47,208 nt of DNA, from positions 1 through 47,208 of the forward strand of contig JBFFZZ010000001.1 of assembly GCA_041568335.1 (NCBI GenBank), read 5' to 3'. The notes beneath the pieces were generated by a model. That model was not told the DNA's origin. It worked only from the letters and a program-made list of their open reading frames with translations, and searched no databases. Numbering within the stretch: position 1 is the first letter of the stretch; the number at the start of each line of letters is the position of its first letter. This document shows positions 7,310-42,829 of the stretch, piece after piece. The stretch is from Candidatus Polarisedimenticolaceae bacterium (GTDB lineage Bacteria; Acidobacteriota; Polarisedimenticolia; Polarisedimenticolales; Polarisedimenticolaceae). Both the position numbers and the translations under genes were made by a program.

Positions 7310-8512
7310 ATGCGTTTTGAAAACACCTACATCCCGTACGGAGCTTACTGGTCCACGCCGTTCTGCAAGTGGCAGGGCAGCCTGTCGACGATCAACGCCC
7401 TGCACGTCGCCGCGCAGGCCGCACGCAAGGCGTTTGCCGAGCGTGACCTGGCGCCCGACACGTTCGACGCGATCGTGCTCGGCATGACGGTGCCGCAAAA
7501 GAGCACGCTCTACGGTGGGCCGTGGCTCGCCGCCTTGATCGGCGCGGAAGGCATCACCGGCACGATGGTCTCGCAGGCGTGCGCGACCGGCGCGCGCGCG
7601 TTGGCCAGCGCGGCGGCCGAGATCGAGACCTCCGGGGATCACACCGTCCTCGCCGTCACGGCCGATCGTTGCAGCAACGGTCCCCACATCTACTACCCCA
7701 ATCCGGCGGGGCCGGGCGGCACCGGGGAAAAAGAAGACGTCGTGATGGACAGCTTCGGCAACGACCCGTGGGCCCGCAACTCGATGTTGCAGACCGCGGA
7801 GAACGTCGCCGCGGAGTCCGGGATCACGCGCGAGGAGCAGGACTCGCTCACCTTGCGCCGCTACGAGCAATACCAAGATGCGCTCGCCGACGGCCGCGCG
7901 TTCCAGAAGCGCTACATGCTCACCCCGTTCGAGGTCAAGGACGCGCGCGGCAAGAGGACTCTCGCCAACGTCGACACGGACGAGGGCGTCTTCGAGACAA
8001 CGGCGGAGGGTCTGGCCAAGCTGCGTCCCGTCATGCCGGACGGCACGGTGACCTTTGGCTCGCAGACCCACCCGGCCGACGGCAACTGCGGCGTCGTGTT
8101 GACGACGCGCGACAAGGCCAGGTCCCTTTCGCGTGGCGGCGATCTCGAGGTGCAGCTGCTTTCTTACGGCCAGGGTCGCGCGAGCAAGGGCTACATGGCC
8201 AAGGCGACGGTGCCTGCCGCGCGGGCCGCGCTCGATGCCGCCGGGTTGAAGGTCGGCGACATGAAAGCGATCAAGACCCACAACCCGTTTGCGGTCAACG
8301 ACCTGTACCTCGCGAAGGAGATCGGCATCGACGCCGACGGGTTCAACAACTACGGATCGTCGTTGATCTTCGGCCACCCGCAGGGTCCGACCGGCATGCG
8401 ACTCGTCATCGAGCTGATCGAGGAGCTGGCGCTGGCGGGCGGCGGTCACGGGTTGTTCACCGGCTGCGCCGCGGGCGACACCGCGGGAGCCGTCGTCGTC
8501 AAGGTCGGCTAG
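7310..8512 (+). CDS. Thiolase-family acetyl-CoA acyltransferase-like protein.
   Basis: ATG at 7310 preceded by GGAG (7297-7300). Nucleophile-Cys context VSQACATGARAL. C-terminal thiolase blocks NNYGSSLIFGHPQGPTGMRL and GLFTGCAAGDTAG. The track's upstream extension from 7073 lies antisense to the neighbouring gene. Confidence 0.85.
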   Translation: MRFENTYIPYGAYWSTPFCKWQGSLSTINALHVAAQAARKAFAERDLAPDTFDAIVLGMTVPQKSTLYGGPWLAALIGAEGITGTMVSQACATGARALASAAAEIETSGDHTVLAVTADRCSNGPHIYYPNPAGPGGTGEKEDVVMDSFGNDPWARNSMLQTAENVAAESGITREEQDSLTLRRYEQYQDALADGRAFQKRYMLTPFEVKDARGKRTLANVDTDEGVFETTAEGLAKLRPVMPDGTVTFGSQTHPADGNCGVVLTTRDKARSLSRGGDLEVQLLSYGQGRASKGYMAKATVPAARAALDAAGLKVGDMKAIKTHNPFAVNDLYLAKEIGIDADGFNNYGSSLIFGHPQGPTGMRLVIELIEELALAGGGHGLFTGCAAGDTAGAVVVKVG

Positions 8513-28198: not shown

Positions 28199-30139
28199 AT
28201 GCGAGGCTCCGCGCATGCCGCGTCGGCGGTGGTGGTGGTCCTGATCGCCGGGCTATGGAACGCCACCGCGTTTGCGCAGGACGACGAAGACTGTCTCGCC
28301 TGCCATGACGAGATCGACCTCTTCGAGGGTTTCGATGACCCGGCCCGCCTGGTCGTCAGCGCGAAGCGGTACTTCGCGTCGTTGCACGCCGAGATGGGCT
28401 TGGCATGCATCGATTGTCACGTCGATCTGACCGGTCTCGGCGACTACCCGCACGCCGATTCTCTGGCGCCCGTCGATTGCGGCGTCTGTCATGCCGACAC
28501 GCAGGAGCTGTTCACCGGGAGCATGCACGGGTACGCTCTCGCGCGCGGTGACACCCAGGCGCCGACCTGCGCGAGCTGTCACGGCACTCACGACATCCGC
28601 TCCGCCTCGGACCCTGAATCGCCGACGCACGAGAGCCGCCTGCACGAAATATGCGCCTCGTGCCATGGGTCGGCGGGACGACTGACAAGAGAGATCGTCA
28701 GGTTTCCGGAAACCGTCGCCAGCTATGCCGCCTCGGTCCACGGACCATCCGACGGGGGCGTGGGCGCCGCCACCTGCGACGATTGCCACCATGTCCACGA
28801 GGTTCGTGGCGTCGCCGATCCGCAATCGCGAATCCACCGTGCAAACCTGTCGGCGACGTGTGGTGAATGCCACGACGACATCCGCATCGAGTACGAGCAG
28901 TCGATCCACGGCCGGGCGCTGCTGGCCGGGTTGCACGACAGCCCGACCTGCACGGACTGTCACGGCGAACACCTGATCCTGTCCCCTGGCGATCCCGATT
29001 CACTGGCCCACGCCAGCCGTCAAGCAACCGAGTCTTGCGGGAACTGCCACGACGACCCGGTGATCATCGCCAAGTACGGTCTGCGCGGCGACGTCGTCGG
29101 CTCGTACGTCGACAGCTATCATGGCTGGACGACTCGGCGCGGGTACGACCGCTCGGCGACGTGCGTGAGCTGTCATTCGGCGCATCGGGTGCTCCCGAGC
29201 ACGGACCCGCGGTCCACGGTGCACGCAGCCAACATCGTGGGGACATGTGGTCAGTGCCACAAGCTCGTCGACGAGGCCTTTGCAGCCAGCTACACGCACG
29301 AAAAGCTCTCGATCACGGCCAACCCGATCAATCGCTGGATCCGCGGAATCTACTGGGTCCTGATCACGGTCGTCATCGGTGGGATGGCCCTGCACAACCT
29401 GGTGATCCTCAACTTCCACGCCGTTCGTAAGAGGCGGGAGCTGGAAGCAGTCCAGACCGTGCGGCGCCTCGACGCATACCAGCTCGCGCAGCACGGCCTG
29501 ATGGCGCTCTCCTTCATCGTCCTCGCGATCACCGGCTTCGCCCTCAGGTACCCCGATGCCGGGTGGGTCGCCCTGCTGACGACGCTCGGCTTGGACGAAC
29601 CCTTGCGTGCCAACGTTCATCGCATCGCCGGCGTCGTGATGGTGATCGTCGCGGTCGTCCATGTGCTTTACGTCCTTCTCGTGCGGCGTGGACGGCGAGA
29701 GTTCCGGGCGATGGTCCCGTCTCGACGGGATTTTCGCGAGGCTGTGGACAACCTGCGGTACCACACCTGGGTACGTGACCGGCCTGCCGATTTCGGGCGC
29801 TACGACTACACGCAGAAGGCCGAGTACTGGGCCATCGTCTGGGGTACGGCGTTGATGGCGGTGACCGGCGCCGTGCTGTGGTTTCCCGCCCTGGCGGTGA
29901 AGCTCGTCCCGGCCTGGGTGGTGACCGCGTCGCAGACGATCCACTTCTACGAAGCCTGGCTCGCCGCCCTGGCGATCGTCGTCTGGCACTTCTTCTTCGT
30001 GCTGTTCCACCCCGATGTCTACCCGATGAGCTGGACCTGGCTTTCCGGGAAGGTGACCCGACGCTCGGTGGAACGGCACCACCCGCGTTGGTATCGCGAG
30101 GAGCTTGCGGACAAGCCGGCCGTGGCGGACGACGATTGA
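28199..30139 (+). CDS. Fusion of a periplasmic 11-haem c-type cytochrome with a C-terminal 5-TM cytochrome b domain (FdnI/HydC-type). CbcL-like inner-membrane quinol/quinone oxidoreductase candidate.
   Basis: Signal peptide, then 11 CxxCH motifs: CLACH, CIDCH, CGVCH, CASCH, CASCH, CDDCH, CGECH, CTDCH, CGNCH, CVSCH, CGQCH. These are followed by His-bearing TM helices (GGMALHNLVILNF, IAGVVMVIVAVVHVLYVLL, AALAIVVWHFFFVLFH). Confidence 0.8.
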   Translation: MRGSAHAASAVVVVLIAGLWNATAFAQDDEDCLACHDEIDLFEGFDDPARLVVSAKRYFASLHAEMGLACIDCHVDLTGLGDYPHADSLAPVDCGVCHADTQELFTGSMHGYALARGDTQAPTCASCHGTHDIRSASDPESPTHESRLHEICASCHGSAGRLTREIVRFPETVASYAASVHGPSDGGVGAATCDDCHHVHEVRGVADPQSRIHRANLSATCGECHDDIRIEYEQSIHGRALLAGLHDSPTCTDCHGEHLILSPGDPDSLAHASRQATESCGNCHDDPVIIAKYGLRGDVVGSYVDSYHGWTTRRGYDRSATCVSCHSAHRVLPSTDPRSTVHAANIVGTCGQCHKLVDEAFAASYTHEKLSITANPINRWIRGIYWVLITVVIGGMALHNLVILNFHAVRKRRELEAVQTVRRLDAYQLAQHGLMALSFIVLAITGFALRYPDAGWVALLTTLGLDEPLRANVHRIAGVVMVIVAVVHVLYVLLVRRGRREFRAMVPSRRDFREAVDNLRYHTWVRDRPADFGRYDYTQKAEYWAIVWGTALMAVTGAVLWFPALAVKLVPAWVVTASQTIHFYEAWLAALAIVVWHFFFVLFHPDVYPMSWTWLSGKVTRRSVERHHPRWYREELADKPAVADDD

Positions 30140-30143
30140 TCCG

Positions 30144-32054
30144 CTACCCGGCGAGCAGGTTTTCCAGCACCGCCCGTGACGCCTCCGCGTTGTGGTGGGC
30201 ACCGGCTTCGTCGAGGATCGCAAGGACCCCTCTCGCACGTTCGACCCACGCGTCGTCGCCCGACTGCTCGATACGTTCCAGCACCTGCCGGCGTAACGCG
30301 GCCAGCGCCGCGACGTTGTCGAGATGCATCGCCTCGTACGATCCGTCGTCCTCATGGCAGTCGGCGCAGGTCCCCAGTGCGACCTCTTGCGTGTGCGGCT
30401 CCGACGGATAGTGGCAGTCCTCGCAAGCCACGAGATCGGCCATGAAGTCCGGTTCGACATCGAAGGGATCCAACACCGGCAGCGTCGCCGATATCAGCCC
30501 CTGCTGGACCGCATGACAGCTGTCGCAGCCGTCGTTGACGGCGTTGGCCCCGCCGGAATGACACTGGCTGCAAAGCACGGCGTCGTGCGTTCCGTTCAGC
30601 GGCATCGCGTGCTCGAACTCACCGGTGTGGTAGGAGATCCGATCGCCGTCCCCATCGGGGATCAGGAAAGTGTGACACGATTCGCATTTGTCTGTGACCG
30701 AATCGCCGTACTGATTCACGTGCCGGTTGTCGTGGCAGCGAAAACAGCCGTCCGAGTACATGTGGCCGATGTTGTCGGGGTAGGTGGTCCAGTCGACCCG
30801 CATCTCGGAGAAGATGTTGCCGGAGTAGACCTCGCGGGTGGTGTCGATCGCCTGGTAGATCGAGGCGCGCCGCGACTCCCAGAGCTCCGGATAGTTTTCC
30901 CGGTAGAAGCCCGAGATACGCTCACCGATGCGGGCGAGGGCCTCATCGTCGGGGAGGTAGGGCGGGAGGATAGCCGCAACGGCCTCGCGTTTGATGAACG
31001 GCAACGTGCGGTCGATGCGTCCGTTGGTGATGGCTTGATCGATCGCTTCCTGCGGCGACAGGAACTCGTGGGCCGGACGGTTGTGACAGTCCATGCAGTC
31101 GATCTGGCGACGCTCGCCCCGCGGCGGCGGATCGGAGCTGGGCTTGCCGTCGGAGCGGTAGATCTGCGTTTCTCCGGTAGCATCGGTCCATGTGATCCAC
31201 TGGATATCTTGGAGTCTCTCGTCGGTGGCGATGTACTCGATCCGCGCGGTCAAAGCCATGTGGCTGTGGATACCCGAAGCACGGCCGAGAAACTCGTCGC
31301 CTCCCCCGGTCTTCAACAGCAGCACCACGGTTCGATCCGTGTTGTCCTCATCGGACGCATAGTGCGGGAACTCCCGCAGCTGTGAGCCGAAAAACTTTTG
31401 TGGCCAGTGGCATTCCTCACAGGTCTCCCGTGCCGGGCGAAGCTCGGTGATCGCCGGGGGGATCGGTCTGGGATAGGTCTCCCGAACGGTCGCTAGGACC
31501 TGGCGCAGTCCGGAGACCTTCGACTTGACGAACCAGCTCGCACCACTCCCGATGTGGCATTCGGCGCAGGGGACGCGGGCGTGGGACGACCGTTGGTAGG
31601 TCACCGCCTCGGGCTTCATGACGGTATGGCAGGTCGTCGCGCAGAACTCGGTCGAGTCGGTGAAGTGATAGCCGTGGTACCCGGTGACCGCGGTGACCGG
31701 TAGCAGCGCGAACAGTCCCAGACCGAGGTACTTCGCCACGCGCAGTTGCAGCGGGTCGCTGAAGTCGGGCCGGGGAAGCAAGCGCAGCTTTCGCTCGGGA
31801 TCCAGCCGGCGTCGGCGCCAGCTGCGGATCAGGATCCCGACGATCATCAGCGCAACACCGAACGTCAGGATTCCGGGGAGCACCAGATAGCCGACGATGT
31901 CGACATAGGGGTTCGGTACGGGCGAGACCAGACTGAACAGGCCGAAGGTGATCAGCAGGATCAACGCGACGGCGGCGAGCAACGTTCCCGCCAGCGTCAA
32001 CCAGTTGGTCCAGAGCGGTCGTGTAATCAGCGGATGTTTCGGGAGTTCACCCAT
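30144..32054 (-). CDS. Inner-membrane multihaem cytochrome with 3 N-terminal TM helices and a NapC/NirT-like first haem region (ImcH-like). It has 9 CxxCH motifs and 1 CX3CH motif.
   Basis: TM helices LTLAGTLLAAVALILLITFGLF, IVGYLVLPGILTFGVALMIVGILI, YLGLGLFALLPVTAVTGY. Haem motifs: CATTCH (CX3CH), CAECH, CEECH, CMDCH, CFRCH, CESCH, CSQCH, CDSCH, CEDCH, CADCH. SD AAGGAA lies before the ATG at 32054. Confidence 0.7.
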   Translation of the reverse strand: MGELPKHPLITRPLWTNWLTLAGTLLAAVALILLITFGLFSLVSPVPNPYVDIVGYLVLPGILTFGVALMIVGILIRSWRRRRLDPERKLRLLPRPDFSDPLQLRVAKYLGLGLFALLPVTAVTGYHGYHFTDSTEFCATTCHTVMKPEAVTYQRSSHARVPCAECHIGSGASWFVKSKVSGLRQVLATVRETYPRPIPPAITELRPARETCEECHWPQKFFGSQLREFPHYASDEDNTDRTVVLLLKTGGGDEFLGRASGIHSHMALTARIEYIATDERLQDIQWITWTDATGETQIYRSDGKPSSDPPPRGERRQIDCMDCHNRPAHEFLSPQEAIDQAITNGRIDRTLPFIKREAVAAILPPYLPDDEALARIGERISGFYRENYPELWESRRASIYQAIDTTREVYSGNIFSEMRVDWTTYPDNIGHMYSDGCFRCHDNRHVNQYGDSVTDKCESCHTFLIPDGDGDRISYHTGEFEHAMPLNGTHDAVLCSQCHSGGANAVNDGCDSCHAVQQGLISATLPVLDPFDVEPDFMADLVACEDCHYPSEPHTQEVALGTCADCHEDDGSYEAMHLDNVAALAALRRQVLERIEQSGDDAWVERARGVLAILDEAGAHHNAEASRAVLENLLAG

Positions 32055-32163: not shown

Positions 32164-32505
32164 TTACCGGGTGTTCCTGAGCTCGACGAGCCAGGCCGCG
32201 ATCGCCTTCAGTTCCTCTTCGGTCCCCTTGAACTCCTTCTTGTGATCCTTGCCGTCGAGCTGGGTTTTGCGGCTGACGAATTGCTGGATCCAAGCCGCTT
32301 CCCGAGCCTCGTTGGGTAGGTCGGGTCCCTTCATCTTCTCCGACTTGACTTTGGCGACGATGTCCGCCTGTGGGACGGAGTGACACAGGTCGCATTTCTG
32401 CGCCGTGAAGGCCGCCAGCCCATCGCCCTCCGCGGCGACCGGGCCGCCGAAGATGAGGAGAATCACGGCTGTGGAACCAACGAGAAAGTGTGTCTTGGCT
32501 GACAT
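32164..32505 (-). CDS. Small monohaem class-I-like cytochrome c (signal/anchor sequence, Lys-rich).
   Basis: 113 aa with hydrophobic N-terminus LVGSTAVILLIFGGPVAA, a single CDLCH, and a candidate distal Met in KMKGPDL. SD GGAGG lies 8 nt upstream. Confidence 0.8.
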   Translation of the reverse strand: MSAKTHFLVGSTAVILLIFGGPVAAEGDGLAAFTAQKCDLCHSVPQADIVAKVKSEKMKGPDLPNEAREAAWIQQFVSRKTQLDGKDHKKEFKGTEEELKAIAAWLVELRNTR

Positions 32506-32613: not shown

Positions 32614-34281
32614 TTAGGGCGCCGAGGAGAAACCACGGATCTTCAGCGCCAGTCCGATCAACACGGCGACGATGATGATGAGTGCGAGGGCCAGCCCCTT
32701 GCGGCGGTATTGAAGCTCCTCGAGCGCCGCGGCCCCGCTCTCCAGCGCCGCGCGGGCATGCTCCAGCCCTTCCGCGTGGGCTTTCATGAAATCGCCGTCC
32801 GGTGAAGGATCGAACGTGTGCACCAGGACCTGGAGATCGATCTGTGAATCGACCGTGCGATCGACGTATGCGCTCGCCTCGCGCGTCTCGACCCCGCCTC
32901 GACGCGCCACCAGCAGTGTCCGTTCGGCCTGTCCCGCCAACACGGTCAGCTCGCGGATCTTGTCCACGAACATGGACCCACCGAGACGGGGATCTCCCGA
33001 TGGATGGTGACAGGTTCCACAACGCCGCACGGCGGCACGAACCCTGCCGCTGCCGTTCGGGTTGTCGTACTCGTAGTAGCTCTTGCCGATGCGGAACTTC
33101 GAGTACAACCGCTCGAACTCGGGGCGCAGAACCGTCTCACTCTCGGATGCCCCCAGTCGATGGTTCGGAAGCTGGCGTGCACGATCGACGAGCCAGTCGA
33201 ACAGCTCGTCGTCCGCGATCCCGGCCTCCCCCGCCTCGGAGAGCAGGTCGGTGAAGACCTCGGCGTAGTTCTCGCGGCTCGCCAGCGGCTCGACCGACTC
33301 GCCGCCGTTCAGGTCGATCGACTCGTGACAGAACTCGCACGGGGATTGGGGCAGCCCCGAGAACATCGCCAGTGTCGGTCGGACGATGGCGTGGTTGTCG
33401 TGGCAGCTGGCGCATTCGACGAAGCTGCGGATCTGCAGATCGGCTTGTGGAGATTCGTGGCACGCCGCGCATCCCTCGTCCCCGGCGTCGGCCATGAGCT
33501 CGTTGTGCACCTCGAAGGCCTCGTGCTTGGGGCCCGACCGGAAGAGCTCCGCTTCCCGCCCATGGCACTGTCCGCAGACGAAGTCGACGGAATCGAGTCC
33601 CGGTGGCGCTGCGCCGTGATTGCCGTGACAGTCGTTGCACGTCGGTGCGCTGAGGTCCTCGCGGTCCAGCAGCGCGGCGGCATGGACACTGGTGCGCCAG
33701 CGAGCGTAGACATCGGTCGGGATCGGAAGACCCCCGGGACCCTTTCGTCCGGCCATCAGCTGCTGGTCGCCGTGGCAGACATTGCAGGTCTCCGCGACAC
33801 GGGTCGGGTGGACGCTCGAGTCGGGGCTCGAGACTTTGCGCGTCGAGTGCACCGTGTGGCAGTCCGTGCAGACGGCAACCTCCATGTCTCCGCGTGCCAG
33901 CGCTATGCCGTGCTGGCTGGTCCAGTACTCGCTCTCCTGATCGACGCGCGGTGCGGGGTTGAAGCGGCGCATGAGGACGGGATTCGAGTGGCAACGACCG
34001 CACAGGGCCGGGATCTCGTTTCGCGCAGGCGCACCGATAAACGTCTCGTCCTTCGCGTCGAGTTCCTCGGCAAGCTCGGGAGCGGGGTTGCCGCCATGGC
34101 AGTCGTGGCACGAGAAGCCGGCCTCGGCGTGGATATCCAACGCGTAGCCCTGCACGACAGCCGGGTCGGCTCCGAAGAGCTCCTCGTTCGCGTGGCACAA
34201 GGTGCACGAGGTCTCCTCCACCCCGCCCGGTGTCACGGGCAAGATCGCAAGCAAGGCCAGCGCAACGGTGGGTGCCTTCAT
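32614..34281 (-). CDS. 11-haem c-type cytochrome with a C-terminal membrane anchor. Candidate third subunit of the Rieske/cyt b complex.
   Basis: Signal peptide, then CTLCH, CHDCH, CGRCH, CTDCH, CNVCH, CNDCH, CGQCH, CAACH, CASCH, CEFCH, CGTCH. C-terminal [22 protein letters not shown]. The start ATG overlaps the cyt b stop (ATGA at 34278-34281). Confidence 0.85.
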
Positions 34282-35441
34282 CGCTCACCTCGGTCACGCG
34301 GTCGCGTGATCCAGCCGAAGCCCGCCAGTGCCAGAATCGCCCCGCCGACAAGGAACACGGGAACCGGGGACCGGTAACCCCAGGCCGTCATGACAACCAT
34401 GTACACAACGACAACCGCACCGATGATCGTGAACCCCGGACTCTTGCCCTTGCGGGCCAAGCCACGGTCGAGGAACGGCACGAGCAGGAGGACGAGTGCC
34501 CCGATCCCGAACCCCATGATGGGGATGGCCTCATACTCGATGCCCAGGATTTCACCGCCAGGCACGAGTTTCAACGTCTCGAACATGAACATGAAGTACC
34601 ACTCGGGCCGGATGTCCTGGTAAGCCGGTGCGAACGGATCGGCCTTGACGCCCAGCTCCCAGGGGAACAGCGCCGCCACGGCAGCGAGCACCCCGAGCGC
34701 CAGCACCCAACCGAACAGGTCTCGCAGGGCGAAATCGGGGAAGAACTTCATGGGGCGGTTGCGCTTCGACCGTTGTTCGCTCGCGGGCGGGACGCTCATC
34801 CCCTGAACCTGGACCAGCACGAGGTGCAGACCCAGCAAGATCGTCGTTATCGCCGGTAGGATCGCCACGTGCCAGCCGTAGAACCTCGACAGCGTTCCGC
34901 CGGTCACGCGTTCTCCGCCGCGCAGGAACTCGAGCAGCCACTCACCGACGAACGGGACCGACCCGGCGATATCGGTGCCGACCAAGGTGGCGAAGTACGC
35001 GAGTTGGTTCCATGGCAACAGGTAGCCGGAGAAGCCGAACGCCATCACCAGGAACAGCAGGACGCAGCCGCTGATCCAGGTCATCTCACGCGGCTTGCGG
35101 TAGGCCTTGACGAAGAAGACGGTGCCCAGGTGGAGGAAGGCGAAGAAGACCATCAGGTTCGCGGCCCACGAATGGACCGAGCGAATCAGCCAACCGAACG
35201 GGACCGTGGTCATGATGAACTCGACGGACTCGAACGCCTCTTCGGCGGAAGGCCGGTAGTACAGCATCAACAGGATCCCGGTCACGACCTGCACGATGAA
35301 GAAGAACAGGGTCATGCCGCCGAGGTAGTAGAAGACGGTGTAACGGTGCTGTGGAACGGTCTTGTGCCGGGCAAACTCGGCGAGCCTGTCCAGCGCGACA
35401 CGCTGTTGCAACCACGCCCCGATCGTCTCGACGGGCTTCAC
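34278..35441 (-). CDS. Cytochrome b of a Rieske/cyt b complex (b6-like N-terminal part fused to a subunit-IV-like part).
   Basis: Helix B haem ligands are H-x13-H ([17 protein letters not shown]). Helix D ligands are H-x14-H ([17 protein letters not shown], the b6-type spacing). The Qo-site motif PEWYF is present. GTG start with GAGGA upstream. Confidence 0.92.
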
Positions 35442-35444
35442 GGC

Positions 35445-35912
35445 TCAGGTCCTCGAGATGACGATCTGCGCCGGTTGCCCGGACCCGCGGGCGACGAGGT
35501 CGACGCGAAACGGCGCTAGCGGCCGTGGGGGCGGCCCGGCAACCTGGTGGCCCTGGAGGTTGTACTGGCCGTTGTGGCAGTTGCACCAGATGCGTCGCTT
35601 GTCCCGCCGATACTCGACGATACAGTCGAGGTGCGTGCAGGTGCCGGCGAAGGCGCGGAAATCGCCGTCGGCGACCCGGATCACGATCACGGGCTCGCTC
35701 CCGAAGCGGACGATCTTGTATCCCTTGTCGAGCAGCTCCGGATCGTTGGTAAACCCCGCCTCGACCTGGTTGGTCCCGGAATCGGGTATCTCCGGCGGAC
35801 TGACGAAGCGCAGTACCGGGTAGGCGATCGAGGCGAACAGCGCGCCGAATGATGTCGCCAAGAACCAGTTGAGGAAACTTCGACGGTCGCGTGGTCTTTG
35901 AGACTGGCTCAC
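35445..35912 (-). CDS. Rieske [2Fe-2S] protein with a Tat signal.
   Basis: Twin-arginine RDRRSFLNW followed by a TM helix. Cluster boxes CTHLDC and CNCHNG. The start is uncertain. The track's TTG at 35966 lies inside the T-tract of the upstream terminator and upstream of the only SD. The GTG at 35912 overlaps the stop of a short SD-preceded uORF (see findings). Confidence 0.85.
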   Translation of the reverse strand: MSQSQRPRDRRSFLNWFLATSFGALFASIAYPVLRFVSPPEIPDSGTNQVEAGFTNDPELLDKGYKIVRFGSEPVIVIRVADGDFRAFAGTCTHLDCIVEYRRDKRRIWCNCHNGQYNLQGHQVAGPPPRPLAPFRVDLVARGSGQPAQIVISRT

Positions 35913-35961
35913 GGTTCTGGGCGTCTTCCGAGAATCACAAAACGCATCATACCCTCCTCTG

Positions 35962-35997
35962 GACAAACAAAGGGACCGGCGTCATCCGCCGGTCCCT
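35962..35997 (-). terminator. Strong intrinsic-terminator-like hairpin (11-bp perfect GC-rich stem, 5-nt loop) followed by TTTGTTTGT on the minus strand, directly after the 990-aa cytochrome gene.
   Basis: Plus strand: AGGGACCGGCG-tcatc-CGCCGGTCCCT (35971-35997), preceded by gacaaacaa. This gives the U-rich tail on the minus-strand transcript. Confidence 0.7.
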
Positions 35998-36022: not shown

Positions 36023-38995
36023 TTACCTTTCGATGGCGCGGCGAGTCTTCGACGGCTTGACTTGCCAGCTGCTGAGCGTGTTCGGCCGATCTCGGTTGAA
36101 CTCCTGGATCCGCATGCCCGGATTGAGCGAGACCAGCGCATCCCGCGACGCGATCAGCGCGCCGTTGGCGAAAAACGGATTGTGCACGCCGTGGCTGCCG
36201 TCGTTGTGGACCAGGGCCAGGTTCCAGCCGGACTTGAGGAGATCGTCGTGCGCGAACCCGGCCAGGGAACCCAGGACGGTCATCGACCCGTCGAGCACGT
36301 CGATATCCGGGATCCGGTGGGGTCCGGAGACCGACGTGTCGGTGAACGTCACCGTCAGGGCCTGACGTCCGCGGGACTCGCCGAAATGAACTTCCGCGAC
36401 ATCCGCCGCGTCGACGATCGTGGCATCCCCGTTGAGGTCGATCGTGTTCCCGGCGGCGATCAGGTCCTCGAACAGCCGAACGTAGGCGTCCTCCACCAGA
36501 TCCTCGACGATATCCGCCAGATGATCGATCGCCCCCTGCACGTCGTCGGGGTCGAGGTGCGGGCTGTGACAATCGGTACAGATGTTGCGGTCGGCGTAGA
36601 ACGTGTGGTTCGTTCCGCCACCGTTGTACGCGAGGACGTCGGGAGGAGGTGTCGACTCCATGTGGCAGGTGACGCAAACATCTTCGATGCCGGCGTGGCC
36701 ACCCGGAGAATCGACCGCGACGAAGTAGGCGTTCTGGCCCGCGATCATGTCGGCCTGAGCCGATCCATGAGGCGCGCGCGCCTTCTCGGAAGCCGAAAAC
36801 GTGTCCCAGATGCCGTCGTTGCGTTCCCCGCGCCGCGAGTTGTGGCAGGTCATGCAGATGGCCCCGCGCCCGGCGTCGGTGAACGTGAAGCCGGCGATCA
36901 GCGGCGGCGTGTCGCCGCTGATCCGCACCGTCGCGTTCGGATCGGATCCGCTCGTCGTGCCACTGGCGTGCGGATCGTGGCACGTGGCGCAGGTTTGCGG
37001 GTGCGCCTCGTCCTCGGTCCACGTGACCGTGACGCTGGCCAGCGGATCGGTCATCGGGTCGTCGTCGAGCAGAACCGGCAACCACTCGAGGAAGCCGTTG
37101 GCCGTGTGACAGCGCGAGCAGCTACCGCTGGTACTCCTTTCGATCGCCAGCTCGTAGTTGGCGTGCGGGCTGAGCTGCCACTGCTGGAAACGGGCGTGCC
37201 GCAGCGGCTCGCCGTGGCACGTCGCGCAGACATCGGCGGAGAGGTCGATGCGCGGCTCACCCACCGGTCCGGCGAACCCGTGAGCGAGCGAACTCTGCGG
37301 ACCGTGACAGTTCTCGCACTGGACGTTCGCCTTGCGCGCGGTTTGCGGCGTCTGCGCGAGCGCGTTGCTCCAGTTGTCCGGCTGCGGGTTACCCAACATC
37401 GTGAGGAACGTGCTGTAATCGTCGGCTTCGTCGATGCCGAGATTGTCGTCCTCGGGGTTGTAGCCCACGGTATGACAGCTGAAGCATTGGGTTCCCCAGT
37501 AGGCGCTGGAGTTGAAGTTGTCGGTGAAGATCTCGGCGTGACCGGTCTGGGCCCAGTCGGTGAACTTGTCCGGCGCGAACATGTCGTTGTGGCAGAACGT
37601 ACATGCGGTATCCGCGACCGGTCTGCCGTCCATGTCCTCGTCGACGATCACGCCACGCCACTCCCCGGCATAGACCTCCAGCGTCGCCGGGTTCCCCGCG
37701 CCCTCGGCCGCGTCCGCGAGCTCGAGCTCGTAGAGGCCTGGAACGTCGGGGGTGAAGTGGGGCCAGCGCGTCGTCGCGTCATTGAGCGTGGCCGCCGAGC
37801 CGGCCGGCGCATTCAGCGTCCAATCGTAGGCCGTATGCTCCTTGGCCTGAACCAGCACCGGTACGTTGATCGGCACGTTGCGCAAGCCGGTGGACCACTC
37901 CCACGGCAGATCCGTGTGGATCTCGACCTCGTCGGTAAAGATACCCAGATCGGTGTCGACCTCGACCTCGAGCACAACAAGCACCGTTTCCTCCAGGGAC
38001 CATGGGTTGATCCCGACGACCTGCATCCGATCCTGCAGGCCTCCGAAGGACCCGTGGGGAGGGATCGTGACGTTGGGCGGGAGCTGGTCCTGGGTCACGA
38101 TGGGTTCCTCTAGGTGGTCGATCAGCCCCGTCTTGTAGGCGCCCCCGTCCGCGAGCGTCACCGTGGCGGTATCCGTGTTGCCGTTGGCGATGGCGACGGT
38201 CTCACCGTAGGTCTGCGTCCAGGTGATCGAGTTGATCGTCGCCGTCGGTGGTGCGGTGATGTCCACCGTCGCCGTGACGATCCCGCCGGGGAACATATTC
38301 CCGGATACGCTCGCCTCGACCATGACGGGGACCGTCGGCAACAGCGCAATGTCGAGATTGCTGATCGGCGTCCCGGCCGTCACCGTCACGCTCTGCGCCT
38401 GAGTGGTGTAACCCGCGAACGAGTACGCAAACGAGTAGGTTCCGGGATTCAGCTGTCCCGAATAAGTGCCCGACGCGTTGGTCGTTGCGAAGTTGGATCC
38501 CTGAACCGTGACCGTCACGCCGGGGATCGGGTTGCCCGTCAGGCTGTCCGTGACGATCCCGGAGACGGTGACCAGGTTCGAAACGACCGCAGATCCCGTC
38601 AGGTAGGCGTTGAATCCACCGCTGCCGGAATCGCCGCCGATCTCCGCATAGTAGGTCCCGGCAGCCGGTAGGGTGAACACATGGGTCAAGTTGCCCATGC
38701 CCAACCAGCTGATGGAGCGCGTCATTCCCGGCACGACCATGCCGCCCGAATCGCGAATCACGGCGGTCGGGACGAGTGTCGAACCCGGCGCGGCCTGCAC
38801 GGTGAGCGTCACCGTTTCGCCGCCCGCAGCCAGGAAACGGCCCTGAACCAAGTCGACACCCGCGGTGTCGATCGTTCCCGAAAATCGGTCGCCGAGCCCG
38901 GTGTCGACGATCGTCTGTGAAAAAGTCATGGGGCTGATCAAGAGCAGCACAAGCGCACTCAGCCCTGCAGTCAACCAAACTCCTCCGTTCTTCAT
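36023..38995 (-). CDS. 990-aa secreted 9-haem c-type cytochrome with about 330 aa of N-terminal non-haem beta-sandwich domains (pre-peptidase-C-terminal-like and carboxypeptidase-regulatory-like).
   Basis: Signal peptide WLTAGLSALVLLLISPMTFSQ. A CarboxypepD_reg-like segment VSGIVTDSLTGNPIPGVTVTVQGSNFATTNASGTYSGQLNPGTYSFAYSFAGY. Haem motifs: CTFCH, CFSCH, CENCH, CATCH, CSRCH, CATCH, CMTCH, CVTCH, CTDCH. SD GGGAGG lies 5 nt before the ATG. Confidence 0.85.
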   Translation of the reverse strand: MKNGGVWLTAGLSALVLLLISPMTFSQTIVDTGLGDRFSGTIDTAGVDLVQGRFLAAGGETVTLTVQAAPGSTLVPTAVIRDSGGMVVPGMTRSISWLGMGNLTHVFTLPAAGTYYAEIGGDSGSGGFNAYLTGSAVVSNLVTVSGIVTDSLTGNPIPGVTVTVQGSNFATTNASGTYSGQLNPGTYSFAYSFAGYTTQAQSVTVTAGTPISNLDIALLPTVPVMVEASVSGNMFPGGIVTATVDITAPPTATINSITWTQTYGETVAIANGNTDTATVTLADGGAYKTGLIDHLEEPIVTQDQLPPNVTIPPHGSFGGLQDRMQVVGINPWSLEETVLVVLEVEVDTDLGIFTDEVEIHTDLPWEWSTGLRNVPINVPVLVQAKEHTAYDWTLNAPAGSAATLNDATTRWPHFTPDVPGLYELELADAAEGAGNPATLEVYAGEWRGVIVDEDMDGRPVADTACTFCHNDMFAPDKFTDWAQTGHAEIFTDNFNSSAYWGTQCFSCHTVGYNPEDDNLGIDEADDYSTFLTMLGNPQPDNWSNALAQTPQTARKANVQCENCHGPQSSLAHGFAGPVGEPRIDLSADVCATCHGEPLRHARFQQWQLSPHANYELAIERSTSGSCSRCHTANGFLEWLPVLLDDDPMTDPLASVTVTWTEDEAHPQTCATCHDPHASGTTSGSDPNATVRISGDTPPLIAGFTFTDAGRGAICMTCHNSRRGERNDGIWDTFSASEKARAPHGSAQADMIAGQNAYFVAVDSPGGHAGIEDVCVTCHMESTPPPDVLAYNGGGTNHTFYADRNICTDCHSPHLDPDDVQGAIDHLADIVEDLVEDAYVRLFEDLIAAGNTIDLNGDATIVDAADVAEVHFGESRGRQALTVTFTDTSVSGPHRIPDIDVLDGSMTVLGSLAGFAHDDLLKSGWNLALVHNDGSHGVHNPFFANGALIASRDALVSLNPGMRIQEFNRDRPNTLSSWQVKPSKTRRAIER

Positions 38996-39079: not shown

Positions 39080-39267
39080 CTGCGGAAACCCGTCACGGAG
39101 GCGCGCCAGACATAAGGGTATCCCCGTGCATCGCAGTCGCTTAGCGTGTGTGACAATAACCTACCGACAGCAACGGGTGCTCCGCGCTCGGCTCGGTAAC
39201 CGGACACAACAAACAAAGTCAACGCGAGTCTCGGCGCACCTTGAGCTTTCATGTGGAGGGTAGCCGG

Positions 39268-39873
39268 ATGAACACGAAACGATTGGCGATCGGATGCGCG
39301 GCGGTGCTGTTCCTGGCGGGACTTCTGTGTCCTGCTGCCGCCGAGAAAGGCGACAAGTTTGTGAGGTTCGGCGTCCTCTACAGCATGCCGACGGACGACT
39401 TCACGATGGGGACGCAGACGACCGAGCTGGACGAATCGGTCGGGTTTCAGGCCTCGTTCGAGTACCAGCTTTCCGATCTCATCGGAATCGAGCCGGGGGT
39501 CAGCTCGGGAAGCTACGACCTGACGGTCGTGGAGCCCGGGTTCGCCGACGTGAACGGCGACACGCAGCTGTTCGCCGTCACGACGAACCTCAACTTTCAC
39601 TTCCGGAAGGACAGCGGGCTGGATCTCTCGGTCGGGCCGACAATCGGGTACGCCTTCTGGGATGACATCACGTTGTCCGGGTTCGCGACGCCGGTGACGA
39701 CCGACGACGAGTTCCTGTTCGGCGCGAGCATCGCGCTGGCCTATCCCTTCGGCGACGGTGGCTGGGGCTTCAACGCGGGCCTGAGCTACCTCGCCCTGGA
39801 CGTCACGCCGCCCGGTGGCGCCATCGGGGTGAGCCCGGTCCAGGGGAAGGTCGGCCTCAGCTACGCCTTCTGA
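39268..39873 (+). CDS. Small 8-10-strand outer-membrane beta-barrel protein (OmpW/OprG-like size class).
   Basis: 201 aa with signal peptide LAIGCAAVLFLAGLLCPAAA, alternating-hydrophobic strands and the C-terminal signature GLSYAF (terminal Phe). SD GGAGGG lies 7 nt before the ATG at 39268. Confidence 0.75.
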   Translation: MNTKRLAIGCAAVLFLAGLLCPAAAEKGDKFVRFGVLYSMPTDDFTMGTQTTELDESVGFQASFEYQLSDLIGIEPGVSSGSYDLTVVEPGFADVNGDTQLFAVTTNLNFHFRKDSGLDLSVGPTIGYAFWDDITLSGFATPVTTDDEFLFGASIALAYPFGDGGWGFNAGLSYLALDVTPPGGAIGVSPVQGKVGLSYAF

Positions 39874-39901
39874 CTTTCCGCACAGGCGCTTCCAGACCAA
39901 T

Positions 39902-39936
39902 GGAGCCGCTCCCTCGGGAGCGGCTCCGCTTTATTT
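39902..39936 (+). terminator. Rho-independent terminator (11-bp perfect stem, 4-nt loop, T-rich tail) between convergent genes.
   Basis: GGAGCCGCTCC-ctcg-GGAGCGGCTCC followed by gcTTTATTT. It lies 28 nt after the OMP stop codon. Confidence 0.8.
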
Positions 39937-39953: not shown

Positions 39954-42005
39954 CTAGAAGCGCAGCCCCGCACGAACCACAACGTGGTTGCCGTCATAGT
40001 CGAGCAGGTCATTCACGTCGTCGTAGTCAAAGTGACGGTAGGCACCGCCAACGCGCAATCCGCTTTCGAACGTGTAGCTGACACCGACCTCGGAATCCAT
40101 GTACTCCTGCATGATGACCAGGTTGTTGAGCACCGACGGCGTCGGCAACGTGAGGTCGATCACGTTGTTGAATCCGTCCGCCTCGATGCTCGAGGCCATC
40201 ACGTAGCAGTGCCAGGCGTCGCGCCGGTAGTCCAGCCGACCGAGGATCTGCGAATTGTCGTTGAGGAAGTCGGAAGATCCGGGTGCGACCGCACCAAAAC
40301 CCGCCGTATCGAACAGGATCGCGGTCGACCCGTCGACCTCGGTGTCGGTGTAACGCAGCAGGTAGCTCACGTTGTCTCCCGCCGCGTGTGTCCAGTCGAC
40401 CGACCAGGCCGTCCCGTCGACCGTCGAGTTGTTGTCGATCGCCGGAGGGACCGGGCGGATGTTCGGTGAAATGTTCTCGTTGTCCCAGTTGCGGTAGGTC
40501 GCGTTGAAACGCATGCCCTGGCGCGGGGTGACCGTGGCGCGAAACCGCGTCTGCGTCTTCATGAAGTGCGATACGTTGGTGAACGCCATGTCCATTTCAC
40601 CATCCTCGAAATCTGCGGACAGTCGCAACCAGCGCGCCGGTCTTGCGGTCAATCCCAGGATCAGCGTGTCGTCGTTGTCCGAGTCGAAGTTGGTGTCCCG
40701 GACACCGCCGTAGCCGCTGCGTTCGAGACTGCGCGACATCGTGCGGTAGCCGGCGCGAACGCGGACCTGCCGGTGCGGCTGGTAGTCCAGCAAAGCGGTG
40801 ATCGTGTCGACCTCCTGGTCGAACCGGGTCACGCTTCCGGGTGTCGCGTCGCCATCGAGGTCCTCGAACGTGCCGTCGCCGTCGAGATCCCGATCGAGCG
40901 TCCCGTCCAGCTCGCGGTTGTAGCTCTTGTAGCTGAGGTGCGCCGTCAGCGGAGCCGCGATGCGAATGGCGGCGTCGAATTCGACGATCATCGTGTCGCC
41001 ATCGAGGCGTGCCGTCGAGATCCCGGTGTCGGCGACGCACACGTCGCCGGCCGTGATCGCATCACAGGTGGCGTCGTTGCTGCACGTGGCACCGCTGATC
41101 GCGCAGGTCCCGCCGAACTCGAGTCCGTTGAACGCGATCCCGAGTTGCTCGACGGTGACGTCGGACGTGATCTCCTCGTCCCCGAGCAGTGTACCCGCGG
41201 CGGATAGCGTCAAGGCGACTCGTTTCGTCACCGGTGCCTGCAGGATCAACGTGGTCCAATCCTGCTCGGTATTGTCCCGTTGCATCCAGTGGTAGCTGTC
41301 GAGCTGCGTCGCGTTGGAAAGATCAATGCCCAGATCACCCTCGGTTTCCTGGACGATGTTGTTGGTGTAGTCGTTGAGCGCCTGGCGAAAGACCAGGTTG
41401 ACCTTGCCCAGCTTGGCGTCGACCCCGACCGTCAGGCCCTCGCTTTCGGCATCCAGAGGGGCCTCGAGCCGGAACACATCGCGGCTGACGTCTTTCATGA
41501 AGAGCGAATCTCCACTTCGTCGGTTGTTGCGGTACTGCACGACGGCGGACACCTTTTCTGTTGCGTGGATCCTCAGGCTCAACAGGTCGCGCCGCCGCTC
41601 GGCGTCCCAGGCCGCTCCATCCTCGTTGTCGACCAGTTCAAAAAGGTTGTACATGTAGTCCTGTTTGGTGGAGGTGAAGCGCAGATCCCAACGGTCCTTC
41701 TTGCCCAGTTTGAATGCGCTTCGCTGGTAGGGCTCGGAGCCGCCGAAGCCTTCGAGCTCGATGCGCGCGAAGTCGACCCAGTCGCTCGACTCGTTTAGCC
41801 ACCCGACATTCAACCGATCGACGTAGGTTCCCGACGATTGTCCGTCGAAGTCTTCGTCGTACTTCCGCTGCTCGCCATCGACGTTGACGTTGCGATGGGC
41901 CAGTTCGATCTCACCCTCGATCTGGCCTTCGCCGTCCGCGTGAGTCGTCGGGAGCATGAGCAGGAGACCGGCGAACACGGCTAGGTAGGCGGTGTATCGC
42001 ATCAT
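39954..42005 (-). CDS. 683-aa outer-membrane beta-barrel. Candidate MtrB/PioB-like sheath of a porin-cytochrome conduit.
   Basis: Signal peptide MMRYTAYLAVFAGLLLMLPTTHA. Long runs of alternating beta-strand pattern with Y/R/D-rich turns. The C-terminus is VVRAGLRF. The start ATG (42005-42003) overlaps the TGA of the decahaem gene (ATGA). The size matches MtrB/PioB-type barrels. Confidence 0.65.
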   Translation of the reverse strand: MMRYTAYLAVFAGLLLMLPTTHADGEGQIEGEIELAHRNVNVDGEQRKYDEDFDGQSSGTYVDRLNVGWLNESSDWVDFARIELEGFGGSEPYQRSAFKLGKKDRWDLRFTSTKQDYMYNLFELVDNEDGAAWDAERRRDLLSLRIHATEKVSAVVQYRNNRRSGDSLFMKDVSRDVFRLEAPLDAESEGLTVGVDAKLGKVNLVFRQALNDYTNNIVQETEGDLGIDLSNATQLDSYHWMQRDNTEQDWTTLILQAPVTKRVALTLSAAGTLLGDEEITSDVTVEQLGIAFNGLEFGGTCAISGATCSNDATCDAITAGDVCVADTGISTARLDGDTMIVEFDAAIRIAAPLTAHLSYKSYNRELDGTLDRDLDGDGTFEDLDGDATPGSVTRFDQEVDTITALLDYQPHRQVRVRAGYRTMSRSLERSGYGGVRDTNFDSDNDDTLILGLTARPARWLRLSADFEDGEMDMAFTNVSHFMKTQTRFRATVTPRQGMRFNATYRNWDNENISPNIRPVPPAIDNNSTVDGTAWSVDWTHAAGDNVSYLLRYTDTEVDGSTAILFDTAGFGAVAPGSSDFLNDNSQILGRLDYRRDAWHCYVMASSIEADGFNNVIDLTLPTPSVLNNLVIMQEYMDSEVGVSYTFESGLRVGGAYRHFDYDDVNDLLDYDGNHVVVRAGLRF

Positions 42006-42829
42006 TCCTCCAGGAAGTACGGGCTCGTGTTGGAGCCGTGGATGGCCGTGTGGCAGGCGGTGCACTTCTCGTTCAGGAACCGCGGCGCGCTGTGCCAGAC
42101 GGGTGTGACACTCGCGGAGTGACACTGATAACAAAGGTTGACTTGCGTCTCGTAGGTCAACAGGTGGCGGTTGGTGGAGCCGTGGACCGTGTGACAGGTC
42201 GAGCAACCGTCCATCAAGGCGACGTCGTGCGCGTAGACGTATGGGGCCATCTTCTCGGTGTGACAGTCGCCACAGGTCTGGTTCGCCAGGGTCGTGTTGG
42301 TCCGCAGGGAATCGGTACCATGGGGGTTGTGACAACCGGTGCAATCCTCGGCCGGATGCGAACGGGGCATCCCGAACTGCGCCACGATCCCCTGGTGGCA
42401 ATCGGCACAGAGTTCCGGAGGCCGCTTGGTGAGCATCTGATCCGCGGCCGCGTGCGGGTCATGGCAATCCTGGCAGGTGACATCGGCCAGTCGGTGCAAT
42501 GCCCCGGCGGCGCGGAAGTGCGAGGCCTGCTCGGTGTGGCAGTCCAGGCACTGTTGCGAGGCCTCGCGGGGGGGCAGCAGCGCGGGGCGAATGATCGAGT
42601 CAAGCTCGCCTCCGCTGTCCATGTGCTCCTGGCCGTTGCCGTGGCATGCGCTGCACGAGGTCTCGTGAACCCAGCCCTTCGCTGTGGCGTGCGGGGTCTT
42701 GGCAAACTCGGCCACGGTTTCCTCATGGCAGGCAGCACACTCCTCCGCGGGTGGCCCGGTGTCCTCGGCCGGCGTCGACGCCGAGAACACCAGGAACAGA
42801 AACAAGAGAACGAAATAAGTTCGTCGCAT
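42002..42829 (-). CDS. Periplasmic decahaem c-type cytochrome of the MtrA/DmsE/PioA/MtoA type.
   Basis: 275 aa with signal peptide FVLLFLFLVFSASTPA and 10 CxxCH motifs: CAACH, CSACH, CLDCH, CQDCH, CADCH, CTGCH, CGDCH, CSTCH, CYQCH, CTACH. Local patterns parallel Shewanella MtrA as I remember it: CTGCHNPHG vs CSDCHNPHG, C..CH.EK..P...H, and the terminal CTACHTAIHGSN vs CLNCHSQVHGSN. The ATG at 42829 follows AGAGG. Confidence 0.8.
   Translation of the reverse strand: MRRTYFVLLFLFLVFSASTPAEDTGPPAEECAACHEETVAEFAKTPHATAKGWVHETSCSACHGNGQEHMDSGGELDSIIRPALLPPREASQQCLDCHTEQASHFRAAGALHRLADVTCQDCHDPHAAADQMLTKRPPELCADCHQGIVAQFGMPRSHPAEDCTGCHNPHGTDSLRTNTTLANQTCGDCHTEKMAPYVYAHDVALMDGCSTCHTVHGSTNRHLLTYETQVNLCYQCHSASVTPVWHSAPRFLNEKCTACHTAIHGSNTSPYFLEE

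Follow-up and report, generated by a model that had tools for sequence, protein, structure and literature searches.

A predicted divergent MtrAB-type porin-cytochrome conduit, with a nine-haem cytochrome as neighbor, in an uncultured acidobacterium

Two adjoining genes at one end of a ~14-kb electron-transfer island raise the question of whether an uncultured acidobacterium carries a haem conduit across its outer membrane and, if so, which way electrons would move along it. The genes lie in a 47,208-nucleotide stretch of DNA from Candidatus Polarisedimenticolaceae bacterium (GenBank assembly GCA_041568335.1, contig JBFFZZ010000001.1, positions 1 to 47,208), referred to below as the window, and encode a decahaem c-type cytochrome (42002..42829, minus strand) and an outer membrane β-barrel (39954..42005, minus strand). 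A first-pass annotation, made from the letters alone, had read them as a porin-cytochrome pair of the MtrAB/PioAB/MtoAB type, and this reading is borne out by matches of the cytochrome to the family model TIGR03508 and to PDB entry 6R2Q and by an MtrB-like fold of the barrel. Judged from profile matches and a structure model, the pair is predicted to be a divergent MtrAB-type porin-cytochrome conduit of an uncultured acidobacterium related to Polarisedimenticolaceae and strain Mor1. Family and fold are established for both core proteins, as are their conserved adjacency and a recurrent neighborhood formed by a nine-haem cytochrome and a small outer membrane protein (OMP).

The cytochrome gene encodes a 275-aa precursor with exactly 10 CxxCH motifs, the number that the first-pass annotation had given, at residues 31, 59, 94, 119, 141, 163, 186, 209, 233, and 256; the translation contains no CxxxCH variant, and its 23 histidines are enough for bis-histidine ligation of all ten haems. 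Its N terminus (MRRTYFVLLFLFLVFSASTPA) resembles a Sec signal peptide, so that 275 aa is the precursor length and not, as had been proposed, the mature size, which would be ~250 to 254 aa. The top-scoring NCBIfam family was TIGR03508 (DmsE-family decahaem), matched over model positions 3 to 257 of 258 (expect value [E] 2.3e-54, 184.6 bits), and the Geobacter GSU2203 decahaem family reached 156 bits against a cutoff of 325. Among PDB chains the only strong match was 6r2q_A, MtrA of the Shewanella baltica Mtr complex (phmmer E 3.1e-26). The alignment joins residues 27 to 267 to MtrA residues 63 to 324 and spans all ten haem motifs plus the terminal CxxCH..(I/V)HGSN, where the C-terminal end CTACHTAIHGSN is matched by CLNCHSQVHGSN of MtrA, in agreement with the terminal C..CH..(I/V)HGSN resemblance pointed out earlier. 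The molecule name of 6r2q_A in the PDB file is "Cystathionine beta-synthase" though its sequence is that of decahaem MtrA, an apparent annotation slip that could mislead automated readers. More than 2,500 database proteins match the window cytochrome at E<=1e-10, and many relatives at ~50 to 81% identity carry the JGI name "DmsE family decaheme c-type cytochrome." Together with the family-level matches, the presence of ten CxxCH motifs in 275 residues lies far beyond chance, and a third-codon-position G+C fraction (GC3) of ~0.8 in both the decahaem and the barrel open reading frames (ORFs) supports these as real genes. On sequence criteria, the cytochrome is a compact MtrA/DmsE-type decahaem.

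How closely the two genes belong together can be seen at their junction, GGAGGAATGATG (42000..42011, minus strand). Read directly on the minus strand, the decahaem TGA (42004-42002) overlaps the barrel ATG (42005-42003), as the first-pass annotation had stated, and a second ATG (42002-42000) is also present, with better spacing from the Shine-Dalgarno sequence GGAGG (42011-42007). The public gene call for an identical barrel protein (P0001) has 682 aa, matching this second ATG; given the two candidate starts, the overlap is either 4 nt (ATGA) or 1 nt (TGATG), and with either start the decahaem and barrel genes are tightly coupled. In all homologous loci examined, the barrel gene follows immediately 3′ of the decahaem gene, over barrel identities of 36% to 56%, with a spacing of 2 to 4 nt in the six homologous loci that have gene calls.

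At its N terminus the barrel protein (683 aa, or 682 aa if translation begins at the second ATG) carries a Sec-type signal peptide (MMRYTAYLAVFAGLLLMLPTTHA, followed by DG), and it ends in GLRF, which fits the earlier description of a signal-peptide-bearing barrel terminating in RF; the terminal Phe is conserved among full-length family members. An AlphaFold2 model built from the family alignment (predicted local distance difference test [pLDDT] 85.2, predicted template modeling score [pTM] 0.76) consists of a single large β-barrel. DSSP assigned 27 long strand segments to it; with segments 263-271 and 277-290 taken as one kinked strand, all long loops fall on the extracellular side and the count is 26, compared with the fewer than ~20 strands that the first-pass annotation had named as speaking against an MtrB-type porin. 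A Foldseek search of the PDB placed 6r2q_B (MtrB) on top (E 5.4e-14, TM score 0.63/0.66), with 11% identity in the structural alignment, and the next matches were TonB-dependent receptors with TM scores of ~0.4. The model has neither a plug domain nor POTRA domains; the best match is MtrB and not a TonB-dependent or BamA-like barrel, the other outcome that had been considered damaging.

In sequence searches, word-sharing homologues of the barrel number only 24, all unnamed or "hypothetical," and the window barrel gives nothing against PF11854 (MtrB_PioB) even at E<=1. The gathering score of this family, 23 bits, is passed by 3 of 23 close family members (P0006, 28.7 bits; P0021, 29.1 bits; P0016, 29.9 bits), which are 44 to 48% identical to the window barrel (48% for P0006). 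A profile search of 1.84 billion representatives yielded 616 barrel relatives at E<=1e-3. PF11854 is matched by 16 of 59 distant full-length relatives (P0283 with 38.9 bits); ten of the longest distant relatives (698 to 775 aa) have no Pfam match, and the PF11854 positives are shorter relatives and the close family. Because of the structural match and the transitive homology via relatives, without a direct Pfam match, the barrel is placed as a predicted divergent member of the MtrB/PioB superfamily that PF11854 itself fails to detect. A family-specific extracellular loop at barrel residues 301 to 323 (~41037-41105, minus strand) bears four cysteines in the pattern TCx6Cx5Cx8C, which are conserved in every family member having the loop; it is missing in 5 of the 23 aligned sequences, some of those being partial. 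This four-cysteine loop may be a disulfide-stabilized docking loop, and it is unlike the N-terminal CXXC of Shewanella MtrB.

What could such a conduit meet at the cell surface? The statement that the pair has no MtrC partner stands insofar as no MtrC-family gene is present, but it overlooked a nine-haem cytochrome gene 959 bp downstream of the barrel gene on the same strand (36023..38995, minus strand). The encoded 990-aa protein, a candidate extracellular partner, has a signal peptide, an N-terminal β-sandwich part with PPC, CarboxypepD_reg, and immunoglobulin (Ig)-like domains, and an OcwA/NrfA-superfamily-like core. Divergent from it lies the gene for a small outer membrane β-barrel of ~200 aa (39241..39873, plus strand; likely start ATG 39268; PF13505 OMP_b-brl, E 1.2e-10), which may be an anchor or export factor for the nine-haem cytochrome. 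The argument that a two-component form points to the Fe(II)-oxidizer version does not hold, as the nine-haem cytochrome and small OMP adjoin the pair and recur in four other loci; with these two genes adjacent, the window locus is probably not two-component.

Across 46 homologues, each of the nine CxxCH motifs of this protein is kept in 90% or more of the sequences; eight of the motifs never vary, and nine further histidines are invariant. The protein matches PF13620 and PF22113 (47.5 bits), the latter not being diagnostic of the MtrC type, because the MtrA-like decahaem matches PF22113 as well (33.7 bits). Searched against the PDB, the family profile found 6i5b_A (OcwA) as best match (E 4.1e-5), then octahaem nitrite reductases and NrfA, and no MtrC, OmcA, MtrF, or UndA chain was among its PDB matches at E<=1. 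Cytochromes of that kind are outer-surface lipoproteins of 10 or 11 haems that have a lipobox and a staggered-cross fold including two β-barrel domains; the 990-aa protein, the sole candidate in the cluster, has nine haems and a signal peptide with no lipobox Cys. The OcwA alignment runs collinearly through haems 1 to 4, haems 8 and 9, and the C-terminal DGSxGVHN helix. In the AlphaFold2 model (pLDDT 79), ~450 N-terminal residues form β-sandwich domains and long helices are found toward the C terminus, and the haem domain is of lower confidence because haems are not modeled. A fold search matched the N-terminal domains to PPC, collagen-binding, CarboxypepD_reg, and pilin-like folds, and PPC, collagen-binding, and pilin-type folds are typical of exported surface proteins. 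At 90% identity, the nine-haem family resolves into 174 or more clusters, which with few exceptions are labeled "hypothetical"; its ~730-aa C-terminal core is at least 48% identical across metagenome-assembled genomes (MAGs) annotated as Acidobacteriota, Phycisphaerae, and Betaproteobacteria, and its N-terminal domains vary (CarboxypepD_reg versus PKD-like). The closest homologue comes from an "Acidobacteria bacterium" MAG.

The transcription units are bounded by two strong hairpins, both rich in G+C and accompanied by T tracts. The one between the convergent barrel and small-OMP genes (39901..39928; terminator scan) is a 12-bp hairpin (9 of the 12 pairs are G-C) with a T-rich tail on the plus strand, likely the terminator that ends the decahaem-barrel operon. 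The other, read directly at 35972..35996 (minus strand) as GGGACCGGCG-GATGA-CGCCGGTCCC followed by TTTGTTTG, lies directly 3′ of the nine-haem gene, and in view of this terminator-like structure we rejected the nine-haem gene as head of the Rieske/cytochrome b operon. Rfam and tRNA scans of the window found no regulatory RNA near the pair locus.

Counting the window, 12 distinct loci carry the decahaem-barrel pair. A genome scan with the barrel alignment gave matches in Acidobacteriota only, namely, in the cultured strain Mor1 (its homologous pair is L007), Ca. Polarisedimenticolaceae, Ca. Polarisedimenticola svalbardensis AM4, and unclassified MAGs. The nine-haem/small-OMP unit adjoins the pair in 5 of the 12 loci, namely, the window, L003, L010 (AM4), L012, and L014; the small-OMP homologues of the latter four are 40 to 59% identical to that of the window, and the small OMP is divergent from the nine-haem gene in five of five. 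Gene order differs, the unit lying immediately upstream of the pair in the four relatives and downstream of it only in the window. An "extracellular cytochrome locus" that lists NHL-repeat and cytochrome genes has been published for AM4 (PMC8528874); it is probably different from L010, as those genes are absent from the L010 flank, where an OMP, a DUF1501 protein, a patatin, and a sigma-54 activator lie beyond the barrel.

The surroundings of the pair are more variable than the pair itself. In L014, genes for a Rieske protein, cytochrome b, a multihaem cytochrome, and a NapC/NirT-type cytochrome follow directly after the barrel, collinear with the gene set of the window. L017 has the same flanks as the window (DUF4097, alanine racemase gene alr, and UPF0158 up to the topoisomerase I gene topA) and lacks a ~13.7-kb block (window 26.2-39.9 kb) that runs from the small OMP through the CbcL-like gene and includes the nine-haem, Rieske/cytochrome b, multihaem cytochrome, and PMT_2 glycosyltransferase genes; in place of this block, a 197-aa CymA-like NapC/NirT cytochrome follows the pair. 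The block behaves like an insertable or deletable extracellular electron transfer (EET) island. In L001/L013, L005, and L007, the gene just before the decahaem gene is a homologue of the window's monohaem cytochrome gene (tblastn, 42 to 45% identity), CbcL-like modules, split or fused, adjoin the pair in L005 and L009, and a 42% identical homologue of the window's 636-aa NrfH/NapC-type cytochrome is encoded downstream of the pair in L009. The two-gene form without an extracellular multihaem cytochrome occurs in the relatives L017, L001, and L006. Overall, the loci suggest a two-gene core that stays fixed while the inner-membrane, periplasmic, and outer modules around it are exchanged.

The inner-membrane and periplasmic candidates of the window lie in the rest of the island. 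A Rieske/cytochrome b6-like/11-haem operon (32614-35966, minus strand) contains a multihaem cytochrome in place of cytochrome c1 or f. Its Rieske [2Fe-2S] subunit (35445..35966, minus strand; PF00355, E 6.7e-13) is b6f/PetC-like and has a PetC transmembrane anchor, and in NCBIfam it matches the cytochrome b6-f iron-sulfur subunit; the TTG start (35966) is probably wrong and too far upstream, because it lies inside the T tract of the hairpin at 35972-35996, and an RRSFL Tat-like motif is found further inside the ORF. The next gene encodes a b6/ExtP-like cytochrome b (34278..35441, minus strand; PF00033, E 2.9e-52) with a C-terminal subunit-IV-like part, with scores of 225.5 bits for NF040969 (ExtP; cutoff 290) and 228 bits for cytochrome b6 (PRK03735). 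ExtP belongs to a Geobacter selenite/tellurite-reduction operon. The third gene specifies a 555-aa cytochrome with 11 CxxCH motifs (32614..34281, minus strand), its ATG overlapping the cytochrome b TGA (ATGA; junction GCGATGAAG). Farther along are a 113-aa monohaem cytochrome c with a signal peptide (32164..32505, minus strand; one CxxCH; PF13442, E 2.4e-4) and a 636-aa membrane-anchored NapC/NirT/NrfH-type cytochrome (30144..32054, minus strand) with an N-terminal transmembrane segment, 9 CxxCH motifs, and 1 CxxxCH motif (CATTCH at residue 138), both 7 to 10 kb from the window pair. The 636-aa protein matches PF03264 and TIGR03153 NrfH (E 2.7e-10); its size far exceeds that of CymA or NrfH, and it may be ImcH-like. 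On the plus strand (28199..30139), a 646-aa fusion combines 11-haem c-type multihaem domains (11 CxxCH) with a dihaem b-type FdnI/HydC-like membrane domain (PF01292, E 2.2e-19; TIGR01583, E 4.1e-22), an architecture like that of Geobacter CbcL.

Taken together, these parts suggest a route for electrons across the cell envelope. The unusually compact decahaem, exported by Sec and made in step with its barrel through the 1- to 4-nt stop/start overlap, would thread the 26-strand MtrB-like barrel, so that its haem chain spans the outer membrane; we infer by analogy with 6R2Q that it is sheathed inside the barrel. On the inner membrane, quinol could be oxidized by any of three candidate modules, the Rieske/cytochrome b proteins with the 11-haem cytochrome, the NrfH/NapC-type cytochrome, or the CbcL-like c/b fusion, and the island would also supply the monohaem periplasmic cytochrome. 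The nine-haem protein with its Ig-like domains, OcwA/NrfA-type core, and paired small OMP is the candidate outside partner; exported, and perhaps held by the small OMP, it would take electrons at the cell surface, a location and partnership that we assign to it putatively. Electrons would then pass from the quinol pool through periplasmic cytochromes to the decahaem in the barrel, on to the nine-haem protein, and finally to insoluble Fe(III)/Mn(IV) or other extracellular acceptors. Such outward flow is favored, with modest confidence, because there is a candidate surface cytochrome, because its best structural relative is a terminal reductase, and because related Acidobacteriota are proposed or known metal reducers; in related marine Acidobacteriota and in the Fe/Mn reducer Thermoanaerobaculum aquaticum, cytochrome/barrel clusters have been proposed for metal reduction (PMC8528874).

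Several observations weigh against a conduit drawn in this way, and they concern its core, its outer partner, and its direction. The profile searches with DmsE-family and MtrB/PioB models that the first-pass annotation had recommended gave a divided result: the decahaem was matched end to end at 7.6 bits under the curated (trusted) TIGR03508 cutoff of 192.2, and the barrel had no MtrB/PioB Pfam match. The window barrel found no match in Pfam, NCBIfam, or PDB sequences (phmmer), and the profile of its family (23 sequences) found neither MtrB nor any other meaningful match in the PDB. It could then be an ordinary porin or transporter of the TonB-dependent, BamA/TamA-like, or general diffusion kind standing beside a periplasmic decahaem with which it forms no complex, the more so as the generic models Porin_4 and OMP_b-brl match some of its distant relatives. 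This would leave unexplained the TM score of 0.63 to 0.66 to MtrB compared with ~0.4 to TonB-dependent receptors, the missing plug and POTRA domains, a gene order and 2- to 4-nt spacing that stay invariant while barrel identity falls to 36%, and the close relatives that pass the MtrB_PioB threshold, and we regard it as very improbable. For the outer partner, gene neighborhood and a weak profile match indicate that the nine-haem protein is possibly the one. The protein could be periplasmic or functionally independent, because its signal peptide has no lipobox Cys and terminator-like hairpins separate its gene from the decahaem-barrel pair on one side and from the Rieske operon on the other; the distant homologues in L015 and L016 are solitary genes that lack porin-cytochrome neighbors. 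Similarity to OcwA is weak (E 4e-5) and lies in fragmentary though collinear stretches, and the fold search with the nine-haem model returned neither OcwA nor NrfA, the N-terminal Ig-like domains having dominated the matches. Alternatively, the pair may be a DmsEF-like conduit feeding an extracellular enzyme; the nine-haem NrfA/ONR/OcwA-superfamily protein would then reduce a soluble substrate outside the outer membrane, for example nitrite, hydroxylamine, sulfite, tetrathionate, or some other oxyanion. A core profile that matches OcwA, octahaem nitrite reductases, and NrfA would suit this reading, as would a core identity of at least 48% across phyla, a level more typical of enzymes than of wires, and a cytochrome b closest to ExtP of the Geobacter selenite/tellurite-reduction operon. 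OcwA itself reduces soluble nitrite and hydroxylamine (PMC6703420), and DmsEF is an established MtrAB homologue that serves an extracellular enzyme (PMC8805035). However, the nine haems and nine invariant non-motif histidines are enough for an all-bis-histidine protein with no obvious open catalytic site, the sequence contains no CxxCK or other NrfA-type active-site motif, the PDB matches of the family are weak (E 4e-5 to 5e-4), and the binding-type domains at the N terminus would fit a protein attached to solids or to the cell surface. We judge this DmsEF-like reading unlikely.

As for direction, nothing in the sequence fixes it, and Mtr-type conduits are reversible (PMC8805035). Electrons could flow inward as in PioAB/MtoAB, from Fe(II), reduced minerals, or other cells through the conduit to the quinone pool or an oxidase, via the monohaem cytochrome c and the NapC/NirT-type or Rieske/cytochrome b modules. 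The comparative loci give this proposal some substance: the conserved core consists of two genes only, and in 7 of the 12 loci no nine-haem gene is near the pair and no large extracellular-type cytochrome stands beside it. The pair of L017 is followed by the 197-aa CymA-like cytochrome, which recalls mtoAB-cymA, the monohaem cytochrome c directly upstream of the decahaem in L001, L005, and L007 recalls MtoD, and a Rieske/cytochrome b complex could serve uphill electron flow; MtoAB and PioAB likewise have no extracellular multihaem components (PMC5566968). The window itself points elsewhere, with an exported nine-haem cytochrome and OMP that adjoin the pair and recur with such pairs in other genomes, and with a decahaem of 275 aa in total that has no PioA-like N-terminal extension. 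No genes for a high-potential iron-sulfur protein (HiPIP), Cyc2, carbon fixation, or photosynthesis were found within the 47-kb window, and modules resembling CymA, CbcL, or NrfH are no less typical of reducers. In published MtrA and MtrB trees, MtoA/PioA and the MtrA of complete MtrCAB modules are not set apart from each other, and according to the authors of these trees the direction of electron flow cannot be inferred (PMC8805035). Since MtoA/PioA form no function-specific clade, the two-gene form is not diagnostic, and an MtrA/PioA/MtoA phylogeny would not settle the direction. We consider inward flow rather unlikely, and outward flow to extracellular acceptors remains the reading that we prefer.

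A more far-reaching picture, held only tentatively and judged doubtful as a whole, is that of a hybrid EET machine in which MtrC of an MtrAB wire is replaced by an unrelated nine-haem cytochrome of the OcwA/NrfA lineage, fused to Ig-like/PPC domains, held or exported by the small OMP, and wired to Rieske/cytochrome b. To our knowledge, a nine-haem terminal cytochrome of this lineage is known so far only from the surface of the Gram-positive Thermincola, and in our literature search no paper connected cytochromes of the OcwA type with MtrAB or with Acidobacteriota. The candidate novelty, if the partner holds, would be that such a protein, equipped with Ig-like domains and a dedicated OMP, takes the place of MtrC. 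Mtr-type conduits would then have an outer-face module that is interchangeable across cytochrome superfamilies, and the unannotated nine-haem family (>170 clusters, all "hypothetical") would represent surface reductases of marine-sediment Acidobacteriota. In published work, MtrAB is seen as a core that combines with different outer cytochromes (PMC8805035); should the nine-haem neighbor be the outer partner, this idea would extend to a different cytochrome superfamily, surface reductases of Gram-positive and Gram-negative bacteria would be linked, and a large "hypothetical" cytochrome family would gain a role. Marine and sediment Acidobacteriota are abundant and their respiratory capacities are largely inferred, so that the locus offers a concrete, structure-supported candidate for an MtrAB-type conduit in this lineage. 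Standard Pfam/NCBIfam screens would miss the barrel entirely, with the decahaem falling just below the cutoff, and profile hidden Markov model surveys of iron-cycling genes that use the same reference families may miss the conduit too. The basic picture of how porin-cytochrome conduits function is unchanged by these findings.

Elsewhere in the window, whose G+C content is 64 to 69%, a 682-aa cytochrome-tetratricopeptide repeat (TPR) fusion is encoded ~33 kb from the conduit (5278-7326, minus strand). This unusual protein has multihaem c-type motifs, a C-terminal TPR array, and weak matches to the DmsE and GSU2203 decahaem models at residues 223 to 421. A 1,204-aa protein (1295-4909, minus strand) combines a purple-acid-phosphatase-like metallophosphoesterase with many thrombospondin type 3 (calcium-binding) repeats and is probably a secreted or surface enzyme. 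The sole RNA gene found by Rfam and ARAGORN is a tRNA-Trp (CCA) at 5194-5270 (plus strand).

How, then, does the window pair compare with characterized systems? It shares with Shewanella MtrAB (6R2Q) a decahaem that aligns with MtrA over the ten haem motifs, a barrel of ~26 strands whose best fold match is MtrB, the order of cytochrome before barrel, Sec signal peptides on both proteins, and a C-terminal Phe on the barrel. In contrast to Shewanella MtrCAB, the window contains no MtrC/OmcA-family lipoprotein; its decahaem is ~50 residues shorter than MtrA (333 aa in 6R2Q), its barrel has no detectable sequence similarity to MtrB, the four-cysteine loop is confined to the window family, and the host is an acidobacterium rather than a gammaproteobacterium. 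With PioAB of Rhodopseudomonas palustris TIE-1 and MtoAB of Sideroxydans lithotrophicus ES-1, it shares the conserved core of decahaem and barrel, and predicted PioB and MtoB are also 26-stranded (PMC10654088). A likeness to mtoAB-mtoD-cymA is seen in some truly two-gene relatives, where the pair has beside it a CymA-like cytochrome in L017 and a monohaem cytochrome c in L001, L005, and L007. An extracellular multihaem component is absent from Pio and Mto (PMC5566968), whereas the window has an exported nine-haem cytochrome adjacent to the pair; it has no PioC-type HiPIP, its decahaem does not possess the long N-terminal extension of PioA, and the 47 kb give no sign of a lithoautotrophic or phototrophic host. 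PioAB homologues have been reported in Acidobacteria (PMC10654088) and MtrCAB in five Acidobacteriia (PMC8805035), so Mtr-type conduits in this phylum are not new in themselves.

The Geobacter OmaB-OmbB-OmcB and ExtABCD/ExtHIJKL systems follow the same logic of a porin with periplasmic and outer multihaem cytochromes, and Geobacter clusters with CbcL/ImcH resemble the island in their association with b-type/c-type quinol oxidoreductases, the window cytochrome b being ExtP-like and the 646-aa fusion CbcL-like. They differ in that the window's periplasmic cytochrome is of the MtrA/DmsE type, not the GSU2203 type, and its barrel is MtrB-like, not OmbB-like. OcwA of Thermincola potens (6I5B), a nonahaem cell-surface terminal reductase (PMC6703420), is the best PDB match of the window's nine-haem family profile; both proteins have nine CxxCH motifs, and the long C-terminal helices and β-sheet insertion of the window model recall those described for OcwA (PMC6703420). 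The window protein carries ~450 additional N-terminal residues (Ig-like, PPC, CarboxypepD_reg), and whereas OcwA sits on a Gram-positive cell wall, the nine-haem gene of the window is found in a Gram-negative host, beside a predicted MtrAB-type conduit and a small OMP.

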